Counted from the first letter of the stretch, positions 9,970-30,118 are shown. The stretch is DNA of 64,000 nucleotides from Candidatus Bathyarchaeota archaeon (GCA_963780185.1 CAWABA010000006.1:352001-416000); one strand, 5' to 3'. Translations and numbers: made by a program. The notes: generated from the sequence alone by a model not told the origin.

Positions 9970-10542
9970 ATGAAAATGAAAATGAAAAATATGCTTAAGA
10001 ATCGTTTGGCTCTAAGTACGGTCGTTACTACGCTGATTGTTCTAGTTGTTTCAGTGCTTCTCGCAGGAGTCGTTACTTACTATGCTATCAACGTTACCAG
10101 CACTCGGGTTCAGGAAGAAAGCCTATCGCTGACATATCTACACGTTTGGTACAATCCAACTTCAAGTACTGCTCAAGGTGCTTTTGCCATAATTAACACT
10201 GGCGGTCGCGACGTAGTGATAAACAAAATCACAGTCAGAGGCCAATCCGCTGACTTCGGCAATGTATATACCGCGGTACAGTCACCCACCAGTGACCTTG
10301 GATACTCATCTGCACTCAGCGATGTCTACTATGGAACTACGTCTTCCTCTGTCGCCTTAACCAAGGGCACCACTGGCAGTGAAATCACCCTCAAATCAGG
10401 TGATACACTGGTCGTTTACATAAGCAGCCCAGATAGCATCACCATTAATGACATAGGCTTAACCGTTGGAATAACGGTGTTCACTTCGCAGGCAATGTAC
10501 TACCAAGAAGCTAACGTTCAAGCTTACCAGGCAAGCACCTAA
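9970..10542 (+). CDS. Archaeal type IV major pilin 2 (paralog of pilin 1)
   Basis: KNRLA|LSTVVTTLIVLVVSVLLA; shares STRVQEESLSLT, INTGGRDVVINK and PDSITINDIGLTV...QAMYYQE.NVQAY with pilin 1; start is one of the ATGs at 9970/9976/9982/9991. Confidence 0.85.
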   Translation: MKMKMKNMLKNRLALSTVVTTLIVLVVSVLLAGVVTYYAINVTSTRVQEESLSLTYLHVWYNPTSSTAQGAFAIINTGGRDVVINKITVRGQSADFGNVYTAVQSPTSDLGYSSALSDVYYGTTSSSVALTKGTTGSEITLKSGDTLVVYISSPDSITINDIGLTVGITVFTSQAMYYQEANVQAYQAST

Positions 10543-23863: not shown

Positions 23864-24438
23864 CGCAATGGCTGCTGCTGAAGCTCCACAGTTAACCCCG
23901 CTTGGGTAAACATGTCTCGTATCTCGGCTGGGCTGTTATACCTAAAGTTTCTAACAAAAGCTGACATCCAACGCGGTATAACAATGTCTGCCAGCAAGAA
24001 TCTTCCCTGAGGTCTCAAAACACGGGCAACTTCACTGATTCCTTTGGCTTGATCTGCCCAGTGATGAAATGACAGCGTGCTAAAGGCAAGGTCAACCGAG
24101 GCTTCAGGCAGAGGCAAAAATTCAGCCATAGCAACATGAAATTCTGCCTCTGGAAACAACTGAGTTGCTTGATCTATCATCTTCTCAGCTGCGTCAACAC
24201 CCACTAACCTTGCATTGGGCCACTGCTGCTTTGCCTTTCTAAGTAATCGACCCGTGCCGCAGCCAACGTCCATAACGACTTCTGGGTTACATTGGTCCTT
24301 GGCTAATTGTAGAACTCTTCTCTGAACCCTGTCAAAAAAGTAGCCCTGACTACTTGCAGTTTCATAGGTTGCCGCCCTGCGATTGAAACGTTCCACATCA
24401 GCCTCTTTACTCATGTATCCCCCTGCCTTTGTTTCCAT
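23821..24438 (-). CDS. Class I SAM-dependent methyltransferase
   Basis: MDVGCGTG, SFHHW, RVLRPQG. Confidence 0.9.
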   Translation of the reverse strand: METKAGGYMSKEADVERFNRRAATYETASSQGYFFDRVQRRVLQLAKDQCNPEVVMDVGCGTGRLLRKAKQQWPNARLVGVDAAEKMIDQATQLFPEAEFHVAMAEFLPLPEASVDLAFSTLSFHHWADQAKGISEVARVLRPQGRFLLADIVIPRWMSAFVRNFRYNSPAEIRDMFTQAGLTVELQQQPLRWSRVLLITRGAKK

Positions 24439-24773
24439 GACAATCGAGCATTAATTGGTTAACCTGTTTAAGCGCAGGTAGTTAATAGCTATTTTTCGGC
24501 TTAAAGCAGTTTTAAAATTTCAATCTCACCTTTTGAAGGTAACTATTTTCTCAGAGATGTGATTAACGTGTATTTAGGCTTAATTCTGTATAAGGGCGTT
24601 AGGTCTTTATGGGGCAATTGAGCGATTTGTGTTCGCAATGCCTAAATTCTTCTTAAACACTAGTGTATCACCAGTGACATAACTTCCTAATCGGGTCGAT
24701 GTGTCACCAGATTTCCTTTCGCCGCCTTAGAGTGGTGTTAGACGTTATTTTGATTGATAAAGAGTGAGTTTGG

Positions 24774-25364
24774 ATGGTTCTCGATAAGTTGTGGACAGAG
24801 GATGAAGTTAATGATCTTAGAGCGATGTGTAGCCAGGGTAAAAATCTTGAAGAGATGGCTGAGCACTTTCATAGAAGCCAAGAGGGCGTTAGACTTAAGC
24901 TCTATCGTCTAGGTTTTGTAGTCTCCGCGGAAACAATTGTGTCATCATCTTCATCATCAACAACAAGCTGTGAAACCGTTAAATCCGCTGAACAAAGGCA
25001 AAATGATCTGTGCTCGAATGCTTCTGCTTTAATAACGAGGGGACTTGAACCCATCAAGCCAGCTGAACAACTTATAACTGTTGAAGACGATGCAAAAATG
25101 ACGCTTGGATGCATCCAGCGGTTAAACGAAAAAGGCTTAACCGCACTCGATATCCGACGCATAAAATTGATGATACCCGCATTAAAAAGCTACATCATCT
25201 TGCAAACTGACTATATCCAGAAGTTGGCAATGGTTGAACGACACGTTGCAGAGTTGGATAGGGTTGTGCTTGCCCAGTTAGAGGACAAAGTTGCTAAAGC
25301 GCAAACCGACCAAGAGCGCAAGGTTTGGGAAGAGCAAGTTGATGCTTTGAAAGAAAAAATGTAA
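24774..25364 (+). CDS. HTH-containing protein, possible terminase small subunit
   Basis: N-terminal WTEDE...LEEMAEHFHRSQEGVRLKLYRLG HTH, Ser/Thr linker, helical/coiled-coil C-terminus; directly upstream of TerL. Confidence 0.5.
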   Translation: MVLDKLWTEDEVNDLRAMCSQGKNLEEMAEHFHRSQEGVRLKLYRLGFVVSAETIVSSSSSSTTSCETVKSAEQRQNDLCSNASALITRGLEPIKPAEQLITVEDDAKMTLGCIQRLNEKGLTALDIRRIKLMIPALKSYIILQTDYIQKLAMVERHVAELDRVVLAQLEDKVAKAQTDQERKVWEEQVDALKEKM

Positions 25365-25409
25365 GCAAAGCGCTGTTTTCAGGGAAAGGCAAGATTAGAG
25401 GGGCGAAGT

Positions 25410-26804
25410 TTGGGACGCAGATTGGAAAATTTGCCACTTTGGCGGGGTCACAAGTATCGACGGGCTTTTAGGAGGCTTCCGCAAATCGATAAAGCAATCA
25501 GGCGACTGCAAGTTCAAGAAGCCATCGAAATCAAGGGTCCCGTGGATTTTGCAGAGAAAATCTTGGATACAAAGCCTTTCCTGTATCAGGCTGCCCTGCT
25601 TGAAGACTCAAGTAAACGAATCGTCGCCTGCATGGGTCGCCAAACAGGCAAAACCACAACCATAGCCCTAAAAGCCATCTACTTTGCCCACGCCAACAAG
25701 GGCGTCACCGTTCTAATTACGAGTCCCTCGCTGCGGCAATCAGTGATAATGTTCGACCACATCATGTCTTTTGTCTACTCCAGCTTTTACCTCCGCAGCA
25801 AAATCCTTAGGGCAACGGGAACGCTCATCCAGTTTGATAACAAAAGTAAAATAATCGCCTTGCCATGCTCCGAGCACCTGCTAAGAGGCTACACGGCAAA
25901 CATGATTATTCTGGATGAAGCCTCATGGATCCCCGAAAAAGTCATCACCCAAATTCTCTTCCCAATGCTAACAACAACCGACGGCTACGCAATACTTCTA
26001 AGCACACCTTGGGACAAAAACCATTTCTTCTACCGAGCCTTCGTAAACCCCGCCTATAGCGTGCACAAAGTAAAATCCAGCGAGTGCCCACTCGTAACCC
26101 AGCATATTCTGGATGAAAACCGCCAAAACATGACCCAGGAAGAGTACCTCATGGAGTACGAAGCCGAATTCGTCGAAGCTCTCAACAGCTATTTCTCGCA
26201 GGCACTTATTCGTTCATCGGTTGAGTTAGCCCAAAAGCTCGGCGTTGAGCTTCACAACAACCTTGAAGGTTCCATTCCAAGCGGAGACTACTACGCGGGC
26301 TTAGACTTCGGTAAATTGCAAGATTACAGCGTCCTCACCGTTTTGAAACGGGAAAGCGAAACCCTCAAACTCGTTTACATGTATCAATTCCCACTCGAAA
26401 CCCCATACACGCAGGTAATTGGGCACCTGATAAGAGCCAACCAAAAATTTCAGTTCAGAAACGTGCTGGTTGATCAAACGGGCGTGGGTGAGCCTGTGCT
26501 TGAGGAGATTCGCAACCAAGGCTTGAGAGTTGCCGATGGTCTTACGTTCACTTTGCAGTCGAAAGAGGAGCTGCTTACGGGACTGAAAATGGCTTTGGAG
26601 CAGAACCGCTTAGCGATCCCGTACGATAGGTTGCTTTGCCAGCAGATCAATGAGCAACAGTACGGGTACAGCAAAAGCGAGCACCTGCAATTCAACCATC
26701 CACAACACTGTCACGACGACATGCTATGGGCACTAGCTTTGGCAACCGCAGTAACGATGCGAACGCCTCCACCTGGCAAAGGCGCTATGATGCTTCCACA
26801 TTGA
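25410..26804 (+). CDS. Terminase large subunit-like protein (ATPase + RNase H-like nuclease)
   Basis: Q motif LYQ, Walker A GRQTGKTT, Walker B IILDEA, motif III STP, QEEYLMEYEAEF; nuclease GLDFG, VDQTGVG, HDD. Confidence 0.9.
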   Translation: MGRRLENLPLWRGHKYRRAFRRLPQIDKAIRRLQVQEAIEIKGPVDFAEKILDTKPFLYQAALLEDSSKRIVACMGRQTGKTTTIALKAIYFAHANKGVTVLITSPSLRQSVIMFDHIMSFVYSSFYLRSKILRATGTLIQFDNKSKIIALPCSEHLLRGYTANMIILDEASWIPEKVITQILFPMLTTTDGYAILLSTPWDKNHFFYRAFVNPAYSVHKVKSSECPLVTQHILDENRQNMTQEEYLMEYEAEFVEALNSYFSQALIRSSVELAQKLGVELHNNLEGSIPSGDYYAGLDFGKLQDYSVLTVLKRESETLKLVYMYQFPLETPYTQVIGHLIRANQKFQFRNVLVDQTGVGEPVLEEIRNQGLRVADGLTFTLQSKEELLTGLKMALEQNRLAIPYDRLLCQQINEQQYGYSKSEHLQFNHPQHCHDDMLWALALATAVTMRTPPPGKGAMMLPH

Positions 26805-27182
26805 AAGAACGAAACGAAGTCTCCCCAACTATTCAATAACTCTGAATGCTAAACATAGCATCAACGATGTGATAACCCCAAGGTTACACTACAATAACCA
26901 ATCAATTAAAAGTTGATTTCGAAAATGCAAGCAATCCCTAAAAAGTTGAGTTTGTTTATAACATCGGACTTTTTTTCGTTTTGCCCGTTTACACGAAAGT
27001 TACTGAGACATGAAAATGGTTTAAGTCGTTTATAAAAAGAGTGGAATTTTTTACTTTATTTCAACACTTAGCGGGTATTTTATTGAGCCTTTTTTTAAAG
27101 CAGTGTAAGAAATTTCATTTTAAGTCTCTTCTGTTTTACCTTTAAGTTTTGCTATCGCAATGCTAACATTTAATTGATTTTT

Positions 27183-27698
27183 TTAGCAAAGGTTTTTTCT
27201 TCTGCTATAACTTCCGCGTGCTTTTTCTTTTCCTAAGCTTAATGTAACTAGTTCCATTGTTCTCAGGATATCATCTCTTGAGCCACAAGTCGGTTTTGTA
27301 TTTATGAGAGCACTGATAATACCCATTAAGCTCTGAATTTCTATTTTGTAGTCTCTCCGAGCAATTTCATATACTCTATCTTCGATATTCCATACAAAAA
27401 GAATCTTGGTATAAGGTTGGTTACTAAAAACTTCGTTAATAACTTGCTTAACGAATTGATTCTCAAATTTGTGTTTTTGATAGTAGTCTAAACTGTTTTT
27501 GACGTTTGAAAATTTTGCTTTGCTTGTAAGTTTAGAAGTGGTGTGAATACTTGACTCAACATGATAACGCTCTAACGTTTTTGGGTCAATGGCTAAGAGG
27601 TCAATCTCAAATTTGCGTTCACACTTTATATTGGTCATCGTAAAACAATGAAGAATCTCTTGGAAATATTTCTCTATTATGTGAACTTCTGGTTCCAT
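27183..27698 (-). CDS. PD-(D/E)xK-like nuclease, AT-rich gene
   Basis: EIDLLAID...RYHVESS resembles a restriction-endonuclease-fold catalytic core. Confidence 0.5.
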   Translation of the reverse strand: MEPEVHIIEKYFQEILHCFTMTNIKCERKFEIDLLAIDPKTLERYHVESSIHTTSKLTSKAKFSNVKNSLDYYQKHKFENQFVKQVINEVFSNQPYTKILFVWNIEDRVYEIARRDYKIEIQSLMGIISALINTKPTCGSRDDILRTMELVTLSLGKEKARGSYSRRKNLC

Positions 27699-28033
27699 AT
27701 GAATTACCCAGAAGTATCACAAGCTCTTTTTGCTTTTAGTTTTTGCTCTCCTGCTAATTTCCGTCAAAGCCCATTCGATGTATTTCGATAAAAGTCAATA
27801 AAAACCAGTTTGCGCTTCCAACGGGAGGTTTATTGTAATTTCTGCTCATTTAGGTCAGAAAAGAAATTATTAACTCCTTCCCGAATTGTCGCGGACATAC
27901 TTCAAGTGGCTTAGATGAACCTTGGCGTTCTTTTTAAAGAAGAAAACAATAGAATGGGAAAAGAAGCCCAAAATTTTTCAGCAAAAAAATCATTATAGCT
28001 GATAATTCTTGTGAGCCTCCAAAGGATATTTTA

Positions 28034-28592
28034 TTAGCCGCATTTTTTGCCTTTGAAAAGTCTTGTCTGCATCTCCACGATTTCAGCGCTATCTTTCGCC
28101 GTGACGTAGTTGTCAAGCAGCATGCCGTTTAACTCGAAAAAACGTGTGTCCCCACGTGAAAATCGACAAAAGCTCCTCCGACTCCTCTTTGAATCCTGCT
28201 ATATAGAGGGCTGCAGCGATGGCTTCTGCCGTTGTAAGCTTCGTTAGTTTGCCGAAGTTGACTGGGTTGCCTGCGATAAGGATGGGTAGGCATCGGCTGG
28301 TTCCTTTAACGTGTTTTCCCATAACTTTCTGGGCATGCTCCCAGCTACAATCCAATGCGGCCAACCCAAACTGCGAAAGCCTCTCCCTGTCTGCAGGAGA
28401 AAACGCGATTTCGCCAAAAGGATTCAGCACGATGGCTCGCTTTGGCAGAAACCTTGCTTTGGTAACTATCCTTGCGTAGCCTCGACGTTTAAGTCGCAGG
28501 GCAGTGTTTTTTTTAGGGTCATCCTGTGCCGCATGGTAAATGGTTATCCTCACTGGCAAAGCGGGCTTTGGAGGTTCCGGGTCAGGTTCCAA
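28034..28592 (-). CDS. tsr3: rRNA aminocarboxypropyltransferase Tsr3 (DUF367), frameshift near 28140
   Basis: QDDPKKNTA, LDCSW, RCLPILIAGNPVNFG, LTTAEA, FTWGHTF; the shifted frame continues ELNGMLLDNY after a homopolymer run. Confidence 0.9.
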
Positions 28593-30118
28593 GTTGATTG
28601 CGCACCTTTACGTGACTCATCGGGTCATCAAAAACCTTCGGGATCCAATCAATAATGTCCGTCGCCACCATGTGAAAGCCAAGTTCGCTTGCGGCAAAAT
28701 CGCCTGCTGCCCCGTTGACGAAGGCTCCAGCCGCCGCAGCTTCAAACGGGTCAACACTCTGAGCCATTAAACCGCTGACGATGCCGCTGAGAACATCACC
28801 TGTGCCGCCCACAGTCATACCTGGGTTCCCCGTGAAATTCAACTTGATGCGTTCGGGACTGCAAATGTAGTCGACCTTGCCTTTCACAAGCACAACGGCG
28901 CCAAGTTTCATCGCAGTTTTTTGAATTGCCAAGGCGCGTTCTTCTTGGTTTTCAGGCAAAGTTTCACCTGTGAGTATCGTGTATTCGCCAGCGTGAGGCG
29001 TAAGAACAAGCGGCACCTTTAGGGGTCTTTTGAACTTGGCAAATGCCTTAAGTCCATCGGCGTCTAAAAGCAAAGGTTTCCCAGCCTTCTCAACCTCTTC
29101 CACGCAGAGCTTCACGAACTCGGCAGTTTCCGACTTCAAACCTAAACCGGGACCCAACGCAACCGCGTTAACCATGCCCAAGTACGGCTTGAGCGTTTCC
29201 ATGTTGCTTGGCTTCAGGCTGGTGCCTTCAAGCTTTACCGTTATCAAGTCAGGAGACATTGAGGAAATCGCGTAAGCTGTCTGCGTGGGCGCTGCAAGAT
29301 AAACAATGTCGACTCCAGTGCGCATGGCGCCCAGCGAAACCAAGGTGGGGGCTCCCGAATACACTTCGCTTCCGCCGATGACGAGCAGCCGCCCAAAATC
29401 GCCCTTGTGAGCTGTGGGGCTACGCGGAACCTTCGCAAGGTAAACGTCGCCTGGACCCGTGTACCCTTCCATCTCCATGGGCAAGCCAATTGGTTTCACC
29501 ACGAGTTCGCCGACGTATTTTTTGGCTTTTTCCAACCCTGGCTTTGACCTGTGGAAAGTGACGGTTAAATCGGCTTTAACCGCGGCGCCCAAGACTTCGC
29601 CAGTATCCGAATCTATACCCGTCGGCACATCCACTGCGATTTTGAAAGCCTCCGAAGTCGTTGATGCAGTCAACTATCTGGCTTATCGGCGGCTTAATTT
29701 TTCCTTTGGTGCCCGTTCCCAGCAAAGCGTCAATGATTACGTCGGCGGATACTTGTGGAATAGCTGAACTGTCAGTCACTTCAATGAAGGCAATTTTGTC
29801 CTGCATTGACTCAAGGATAGCATAGTTTCTTCGGGCTGCCTCATGGTTGACGTCCCTGCTTCTGCCTGCAAGAACAACAGCTACTTTGTAGCCAGCTGAC
29901 AAAAGATGCCGTGCTACGACAAATCCGTCGCCTCCGTTTCCGCCTAAACCGCAGAAAACAGCCACCTTTTTGCCTTCGGGAAACCGTGCAGTCACTTCTT
30001 GGGCAACGCTGCCTCCAGCGTTCTCCATTAGCTGAAGCAGGCTTACGCCGTAGTATTCAGCGTTGGCTTCCAGGGCTCGCATTTCCCTGCTTGTAATCGG
30101 CTTGTTTTTGGTACGCAT
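28582..30118 (-). CDS. nnr: Bifunctional NAD(P)H-hydrate epimerase/dehydratase (frameshift near 29665)
   Basis: LMENAG, GNGGDG, DALLGTG, AVDVPTG; then HKGDFG, GPGLG, LDAD, TPHAGE, GGTGDVLSG. Confidence 0.92.

Follow-up and report, generated by a model that had tools for sequence, protein, structure and literature searches.

The DNA analysed here is a window of 64,000 nt from Candidatus Bathyarchaeota archaeon (GCA_963780185.1 CAWABA010000006.1:352001-416000; source genome G000), and our subject is a pair of genes within it that code for a helix-turn-helix (HTH) protein and the large subunit of a virus terminase (TerL). The HTH gene, an open reading frame (ORF) for 196 amino acids in the position of a terminase small subunit (TerS) gene (24774..25364, + strand), specifies a protein whose N-terminus forms a Myb/GcrA-like HTH and whose C-terminus forms a long-helix domain, with a Ser-rich linker in between. 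On the same strand, the TerL gene (25410..26804, TTG start) codes for 464 amino acids with ATPase and RNase H-like nuclease domains, as recognised by Pfam, PHROG, and PDB profile searches. Its reading frame is open throughout, with zero stops and zero frameshifts in 464 codons. We call this copy of the pair locus A (window 24774-26804, + strand, intact). The initial annotation had described an intact TerL with all its ATPase and nuclease motifs, preceded by a co-oriented HTH gene and followed by an AT-rich spacer, a convergent nuclease-like ORF (27183-27698, - strand) and then tsr3 (28113-28592, - strand), with no portal, capsid, or integrase gene alongside, and on each of these points our analysis agrees with it.

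Pfam recognised both Terminase_6N (47.6 bits; gathering cut-off 22) and Terminase_6C (25.8 bits; gathering cut-off 22.6) in TerL, and PHROG 2, 'terminase large subunit', matched at 8.7e-40. Foremost among the solved structures were 4zni for the ATPase (2.5e-15), 5m1f for the nuclease (3.2e-13, residues 286-446), and T4 gp17 (1e-7); the 4zni ATPase and the 5m1f/5tge nuclease domains we take to be those of Thermus phages P74-26 and G20c. Here, we noticed that the GRQTGKT, LRG, and ILDEA...STP stretches of TerL line up with 4zni. In fact, among 49 aligned full-length TerLs (sampled as given below), at least 48 keep K81 (Walker A), R159 (arginine finger), E170 (Walker B), and T199/P200 (coupling motif), and all 49 have the acidic nuclease residues D299, D305, D355, D436, and D437. 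Moreover, these catalytic residues are equally kept in solo and in virus-linked TerLs. Judged by both domain tests, the ATPase and the nuclease one, TerL is a terminase large subunit.

For the HTH protein, the Pfam matches to HTH domains were weak and below cut-off (E 0.03), PHROG 323 matched at 1.7e-7, and the profile of its family led to the DNA-binding domains of GcrA and Myb in the PDB profile search (1.8e-4 to 5e-4). Its structural model has a three-helix HTH at the N-terminus, a Ser-rich linker predicted to be disordered, and long helices at the C-terminal end. As expected of a TerS, this is a small DNA-binding protein whose gene immediately precedes that of TerL, in virus genomes and in most host loci alike. 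When TerL was modelled in complex with the HTH protein's C-terminal domain, the score was 0.01, with controls that did not fold, a result that speaks neither for nor against binding.

The insertion at tsr3, its age and its cargo

A comparison of the tsr3 site across 33 genomes of the genus shows, by alignment, that the HTH-TerL pair is part of an insertion between a methyltransferase gene and tsr3 (Ribo_biogen_C match, 2.5e-36). The pair is found there in four of the 33 genomes (G000, G051, G003, and contig C27 of G004), and also on a second G004 contig, C5. Five genomes (G016, G020, G053, G019, and G047) have an empty site, with tsr3 ~200 bp from the methyltransferase gene; the initial annotation had proposed to look for such sites in relatives. 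As to the others, tsr3 adjoins a membrane-protein gene, without the methyltransferase, in 21 genomes, and the remaining three have another insertion, a missing gene, or a contig edge. Since the empty spacers align to G000 up to ~24512 and again from ~28040, the inserted segment measures ~3.5 kb (24512..28040, boundaries approximate) and holds only the HTH gene, TerL, and a 171-aa ORF. We found no target-site duplication or terminal repeat, and no convincing direct or inverted repeats at its edges; 10 nt that recur at 24501 and 27095 were considered as its boundary and rejected, being within chance. An Rfam scan of 24300-28200 gave zero matches.

The pair is syntenic in G051, G003, and G004, and its divergence keeps pace with that of the chromosome around it. 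Between G000 and G051, the synonymous divergence (dS) of TerL is 0.53, with 0.53-0.93 for flanking genes, and between G000 and G003 it is 1.46, with 1.16-2.5 or saturation for flanking genes. The ratio of nonsynonymous to synonymous divergence (dN/dS) is 0.055-0.10 for TerL (0.06 for G000 against the G003 copy, at dS 1.46) and 0.08-0.18 for the HTH gene, compared with 0.03-0.16 for seven flanking genes. As TerL combines a low dN/dS with a dS equal to that of flanking housekeeping genes, it is therefore not a recent remnant. On the evidence of substitution rates, these data show that the locus has long been inherited vertically with the chromosome, both genes being under purifying selection as strong as that on their housekeeping neighbours. 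The initial annotation had asked whether the pair is vertically inherited under purifying selection, which holds for these relatives, and had named relaxed selection, a full provirus in close relatives, or lack of the pair in them as marks of a recent remnant. We found neither relaxed ratios nor a full provirus; as for the last point, some relatives do have an empty site, whereas G051, G003, and G004 keep the pair under selection.

Between TerL and tsr3 lies a variable cargo slot (26805..28040), AT-rich in G000 and species-specific in content. The kilobase at 27-28 kb has 33% GC, against 43-52% in the adjacent kilobases, and the stretch differs among G000, G051, G003, and both G004 copies. In G000 it contains the 171-aa ORF (27183..27698, - strand), which is found at this site in G000 only; the corresponding slots of G051, G003, and G004 have other genes. 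Relatives of this ORF number ~144 unnamed proteins, none with a Pfam domain, and some are in Bathyarchaeia records. Its AlphaFold2 model (pLDDT 88.3) gave 1y88 as the best Foldseek match (E 2.9e-4, probability 1.0), followed by weaker ones (E 0.007-0.07) to the PD-(D/E)xK nucleases NucS/EndoMS, MspJI, McrC, and Can2. By this predicted structure, the ORF has the restriction-endonuclease-like alpha/beta fold, PD-(D/E)xK-like in type. Among 31 sequences of its family, E31, D33, H46, E48, and K77 are invariant, and there is no lysine two residues after E48. Because the ORF is absent from the site in the other carrier species, we regard it as cargo rather than a partner of the terminase, and the functional pairing of terminase and nuclease that had been suggested at first is not upheld. 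In the neighbourhood of tsr3, we also observed overlapping ORFs of 363 and 180 aa in G000 (28582-30118, - strand), which correspond to a single ORF of 511-513 aa in G051 and G003 and thus point to a frameshift or sequencing error in G000.

Viral relatives and solo terminases elsewhere

In IMG/VR, we identified 18 contigs with a TerL 71-75% identical to that of locus A, and in 15 of these the HTH gene lies directly upstream. By PHROGs and Pfam annotation, the contigs carry portal, protease, scaffold, capsid, and tail genes, which follow one of two layouts. In one, the order is c49-HTH-TerL-portal-...-capsid-tail (c49 and similar names denote ORF clusters). In the other, the tail module is on one strand and c3-c11-HTH-TerL on the other, followed by variable genes and then by capsid, scaffold, protease, and portal. 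As at locus A, variable genes come directly after TerL in viral contigs. A tree of 31 TerLs, which answers the call of the initial annotation for a comparison with tailed archaeal viruses, places the A-site group (four rows, support 100) among viral rows. A second group of host TerLs, B (three rows, support 100), is likewise monophyletic and sister to two viral contigs (support 98). As the A and B groups are separate among the viral rows, they point to two independent captures from the same virus group. We consider it very probable that the locus represents a tailed archaeal virus's packaging operon, with a putative promoter region that includes the conserved motif described below, the HTH gene, TerL, and then the variable cargo slot, stranded or placed at the methyltransferase-tsr3 site in an ancestor of G000, G051, G003, and G004. 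This confidence applies to the identity as a whole, comprising a viral packaging operon, arrival in an ancestor, vertical inheritance, selection, and recurrence as solo pairs.

Conserved non-coding DNA upstream of the HTH gene (24571..24743, + strand) forms blocks at ~24575-24593, 24617-24633, 24641-24659, and 24713-24739. These runs of invariant columns persist in the alignment of the five A-site copies despite a dS of 0.5-1.5. Within the region, a 26-nt motif (24717..24742, + strand), TTTCGCCGCC..GAGTGG.GTTAGA, is common to related viruses and provirus remnants, where it stands upstream of the packaging operon. At up to 5 mismatches, it had 11 matches in the fetched loci and the own genome and 0 in the shuffled genome; the matches are in the A-site copies, in four viral contigs (upstream of c49-HTH-TerL), in G047, and in two G000 remnants. 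The motif is thus a candidate promoter/operator or a candidate packaging site. A scan for promoters and terminators gave the same counts as shuffles, its consensus patterns being bacterial and the host archaeal.

A search of the whole G000 genome, an assembly 93% complete, gave zero matches to Phage_portal, Phage_capsid, and Phage_capsid_4. Moreover, a tblastn search of G000 with 337 ORF products of the 18 viral contigs found no capsid, protease, scaffold, or tail gene, and of the portal only a 49-aa fragment. What did match were four TerL loci, c3, c11, and c4 on contig C12, c21 with a few accessory genes, and the portal fragment. With the same Pfam families and virion proteins, no capsid, portal, tail, or integrase gene was found near the pair, and the three Phage_integrase matches in G000 are all on contig C7, outside the window. 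Rather than a complete provirus with portal, capsid, tail, and integrase genes beside the terminase, the insertion is ~3.5 kb with host genes on both sides. As the assembly is 93% complete, the absence of capsid genes from the genome is not proven.

Besides locus A, G000 has three further TerL loci. Locus B (L002; C5:118610-120374) is an intact HTH-TerL pair, the TerL being 68% identical to that of locus A, and lies between ribosomal L30 and L15 genes; here and below, the names of ribosomal proteins, SecY, a macro-domain protein, and RelE-, VapBC-, AbiE-, and restriction-modification-like cargo come from reading the sequence by eye. At locus C (C6:655452-657199), an intact TerL has a small coiled-coil ORF upstream in place of the HTH gene. 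At locus D (C5:145131-146440), large fibre-like ORFs accompany a decaying TerL whose sequence is divided between two frames, and the 49-aa portal fragment is 4 kb away (C5:150795-150941). Locus D is a decaying provirus, unlike the intact solo pairs of G000. In G000 and G051, the B-type pair lies within the ribosomal cluster; the B-type pairs of G053 and G019 have unrelated neighbours. As to the ribosomal site itself, it is empty in G019 and has a TerL 3' fragment alone in G053. In G051, restriction-modification-like genes and an AbiE-like pair lie alongside the occupied B site.

The terminase also proved widespread, as the initial annotation had proposed to check, with TerL matches in 33 of 41 genus genomes (two draws) and in 11 of 16 other genomes of the order, and with up to 7 matches per genus genome at E<=1e-20. 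Two portal types, by comparison, occurred in 10 and 1 of the 41 genomes, a count that does not include the portals of clade II proviruses. Our sample covered ~19 kb around 52 TerL matches and the four G000 loci, in which ORFs were clustered. For the tree of 49 TerLs, ORFs of at least 400 aa were taken, and the shorter or split D, L027, L028, L063, L073, L074, and L076 were excluded. By a rule of three genes on each side, 36 of the 49 rows were solo, and subtracting L057 and L037, which have virion-module genes just upstream, leaves 34 of 49 full-length TerLs without a virion gene in ~19 kb. Solo TerLs of other clades have a dN/dS of 0.07-0.11 where dS is measurable, and virus-linked ones of 0.035-0.094.

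Several further observations concern these loci and their viral relatives. C-terminal TerL fragments, running from ~codon 400-430 to ~45 bp past the stop, are recurrent, and N-terminal ones are rare. The former lie downstream of an intact TerL in six loci and alone in three (L145, which is G004:C55 with four copies ~900 bp apart, L146, L138, L149, L050, L053, L054, L059, and L067). Small toxin-antitoxin-like genes or an AAA_14 ATPase stand in between, and the left ends of the fragments spread over ~70 bp; one possibility is that they derive from Campbell-type integration of cargo circles. In a provirus remnant at G000:C12:17-11661, the packaging-operon flank genes c3, c11, and c4 (a split ABC-type ATPase) are present, with a 149-aa ORF, a RelE-like ORF, and a 607-aa ORF in the position of HTH and TerL. 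Cluster c4, which lies beside TerL, was considered as the portal and rejected, as Pfam, PHROGs, and NCBIfam identify it as an ABC-type ATPase. A virus-encoded ABC-type ATPase of ~480 aa lies at L065:7752-9191, and clade II proviruses have homologues of it beside TerL. Among PADLOC models, it matches mad3 (2.5e-11) and mad8 (3.9e-7). A 170-nt stretch common to locus B and G053:C6 was set aside as an element end, since it is a dispersed repeat with >40 matches genome-wide. A dispersed repeat of ~200 nt, with several TGCGACTTT-like words, lies at G000:C5:122561-122780 and in >40 other places across the contigs, and its copies are 70-89% identical.

In the viral contig L160, 32 nt of a tRNA 3'-end (T-arm, acceptor, and CCA; 10125-10156) lie ~50 nt after the TerL stop. 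The same end is 97% identical at C6:24610-24643, C7:3942-3973, and C11:55531-55563 of G000, once beside an integrase fragment. This is probably a viral attachment site, in which case the integrated virus would have TerL at its extreme end. tRNA-like fragments directly follow TerL in L050, L055, and L047 as well, and in eight loci with solo TerLs, an Rfam search of the adjoining DNA gave no complete tRNA. G000 also has a CRISPR-like array (C13:3045-4681) with at least 22 repeat copies.

Possible roles of the pair

The persistence of an intact pair across several host species suggests continued use, by the cell or by the unit as such. The explanation we favour, while holding it tentatively, is that a packaging operon has been kept under selection and acts in trans on related infecting viruses. 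As a mechanism, this may take the form of interference or of hitch-hiking transduction, and action in trans seems to us the likeliest, since no capsid genes were found in G000 and yet the ATPase and nuclease centres are conserved. On infection by a related virus, the target of the HTH protein would be either a site in cis, for which the 24717-24742 motif is a candidate, or the packaging site of the virus, and TerL would cut at the bound site and dock on the procapsids of the invader. By interference, fewer infectious virions would result. By hitch-hiking, the locus and its downstream cargo would be packaged and moved to relatives, as happens with satellites or in lateral transduction.

A more specific version, which is possible and which we advance with less conviction, sees the solo pairs as 'terminase islands', minimal satellites of archaeal tailed viruses that comprise a packaging site in cis, their own TerS and TerL, and a cargo slot. 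With a related virus in the cell, the island's own terminase would cut the chromosome at its own site and load the island and the downstream genes into the procapsids of the invader. As a consequence, the virus yield would be lowered, and the island with its cargo (nucleases and toxin-antitoxin-like genes) would spread to relatives, where homologous recombination would insert it at the corresponding chromosomal position. Four observations would be accounted for in this way, namely that both catalytic centres are under selection, that capsid genes are lacking, that species which are not sisters have the pair at one and the same site, and that the DNA following TerL varies.

A number of results weigh against an action of the pair on infecting viruses, or against parts of that picture. 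The HTH protein resembles no known TerS family in Pfam, NCBIfam, or the PDB profile search, and Foldseek of its model against viral and PDB libraries gave zero matches at E<=1e-3; because sequence and fold provide no match, the proposed TerS role is argued from gene position and domain layout only. No PADLOC model matched the HTH protein, TerL, or the 171-aa ORF, and there is no helper virus in the G000 assembly. The pair is dispensable, as the sister lineages G016, G053, G019, and G047 are without it; from the 3 stop codons in the copy on G004:C27, loss does occur. In a species tree of five genes (1205 columns), G000 and G051 together are sister to these four empty-site genomes (support 97) and G003 falls outside. 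This placement calls for at least two events, in that the pair was either gained and then cleanly lost or gained twice at the one site, though a two-gene tree places G003 differently. Finally, the purifying selection could also reflect a host function unrelated to viruses.

Such a host function, for which the ATPase-nuclease and its DNA-binding partner would have been recruited into repair, segregation, or defence against mobile DNA, is the alternative that fares best, and we still think it unlikely. It would account for selection matching that on the housekeeping neighbours, for the co-divergence of the pair with its flanks, for the conserved catalytic centres, and for a genome in which no capsid genes were found. 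It sits poorly with the patchy distribution (four of 33 genomes have the pair at the site, with sister lineages empty), with the pseudogenisation of one copy, and with the coexistence of paralogous pairs of separate viral origin in one genome. Moreover, the proteins are still 71-75% identical to those of current viruses and the viral cis motif is kept.

We give somewhat less credence to a self-mobile two-gene element, in which the RNase H-fold nuclease of TerL would serve as a transposase or homing enzyme at sites picked by the HTH protein, or which viruses would shuttle by recombination. The high copy numbers (as many as 7 matches in one genome at E<=1e-20), the related B-type copies in differing contexts, the TerL 3' fragments recurring beside intact copies, and the gain with clean loss, or two gains, that the A-site pattern requires would all be in keeping with mobility. 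The same might be said of the DNA likeness between copies, which on one side stops ~40-100 nt short of the HTH start and on the other reaches no more than 10 nt beyond the TerL stop; however, neutral flanks do not align at dS >1, so that sharp boundaries are expected without mobility and we do not use them as evidence for it. Terminal inverted repeats and target duplications were not found, the A and B groups track species relations as far as these are resolved, and the conserved packaging ATPase residues would not be needed for transposition.

We regard as highly improbable a dispersed gene transfer agent whose head and tail genes would lie elsewhere in the genome. Split loci of such agents are known in bacteria, and the terminase is intact and selected. 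Yet the 93% complete genome is without Phage_portal, Phage_capsid, and Phage_capsid_4, and nothing in it matched the capsid, protease, scaffold, or tail genes of the 18 viral contigs or of the proviruses of relatives, the 49-aa portal fragment excepted. Given that no capsid genes were found, this reading, put forward in the initial annotation, is not supported. Of the domesticated packaging motor proposed there, what stands is a syntenic pair that is selected and not decaying, and what finds no support is its use in a gene transfer agent or in partnership with the nuclease. A part in interference, in a process like lateral transduction, or as a decoy may apply and is the kind of mechanism that we prefer. 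Lastly, a neutral provirus remnant, recently stranded and yet to decay, finds company in G000, which does hold remnants (locus D with its split TerL and portal fragment, and the c3-c11-...-c4 stretch of C12 without TerL), but is already refuted by a dN/dS of 0.06 at a dS of 1.46 to the G003 copy, unless the codon analysis is wrong, and also fits badly with zero stops in 464 codons and with occupation of the same site in four species.

Relation to known packaging systems

Locus A TerL shares with the TerLs of tailed viruses (T4 gp17-type) both Pfam domains, Walker A and B, the arginine finger, the coupling motif, and the five acidic nuclease residues, and differs from them in being part of a cellular chromosome, without virion genes, and in being kept across speciation. 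Similarly, the packaging operons of the 18 IMG/VR viruses have the HTH gene upstream, a TerL 71-75% identical, the 26-nt motif, and variable genes after TerL. Here, the difference is that the viruses add portal, protease, scaffold, capsid, and tail genes, and the window has two genes and one cargo gene.

The domesticated defective prophages of bacteria that Bobay, Touchon and Rocha reportedly described in 2014 are comparable in that virus-derived genes are vertically inherited under purifying selection, though in our case it is the terminase pair that remains, and repeatedly so. In contrast, when bacterial prophages are incomplete, the terminase and the portal are among the genes whose loss is preferential (PMC7744054).

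A likeness to phage satellites that redirect packaging, such as PICI, PICMI, and cf-PICI, lies in a chromosomal unit with packaging-specificity genes and cargo and no full set of virion genes, for which dependence on helper capsids is plausible. Unlike these, the insertion has no integrase, excisionase, or replication gene, it carries TerL besides the putative small subunit, and it shows no sign of excision; a satellite with integration or excision and replication genes of its own is thus not what we found. Lateral transduction is known from integrated prophages in Staphylococcus and Salmonella, and likewise, if a terminase worked in situ at a packaging site of the chromosome, downstream genes would be moved, with the variable DNA downstream of TerL as the counterpart here. 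As a difference, G000 has no resident prophage supplying capsids, and the packaging site is only a candidate.

The archaeal satellites described so far exploit spindle-shaped and not tailed viruses, as stated in one report (10.1101/2025.02.15.638363). For defence at the packaging step, TERi is a precedent (10.1101/2025.02.27.640495). The available parts of two Bathyarchaeia papers (PMC11697101, 10.1101/2023.08.24.554615) mention terminase only within whole viruses or proviruses. We found no description of a lone terminase or of solo terminase pairs from Bathyarchaeia in the literature, where supplementary files may list such genes.

Virus remnants are usually read as decaying junk, and from bacterial ones the terminase is among the earliest genes lost. 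In an abundant uncultivated group of archaea we see the opposite, with the terminase pair alone kept, more than once, and both enzymatic centres intact. Retention for long enough to saturate synonymous sites suggests that a packaging motor lacking a capsid has some use. Should interference with related viruses, or their hijacking, prove true, then these pairs would be the first example, for archaeal tailed viruses, of satellites or of defences based on packaging, and they would also provide a route of gene transfer in Bathyarchaeia.

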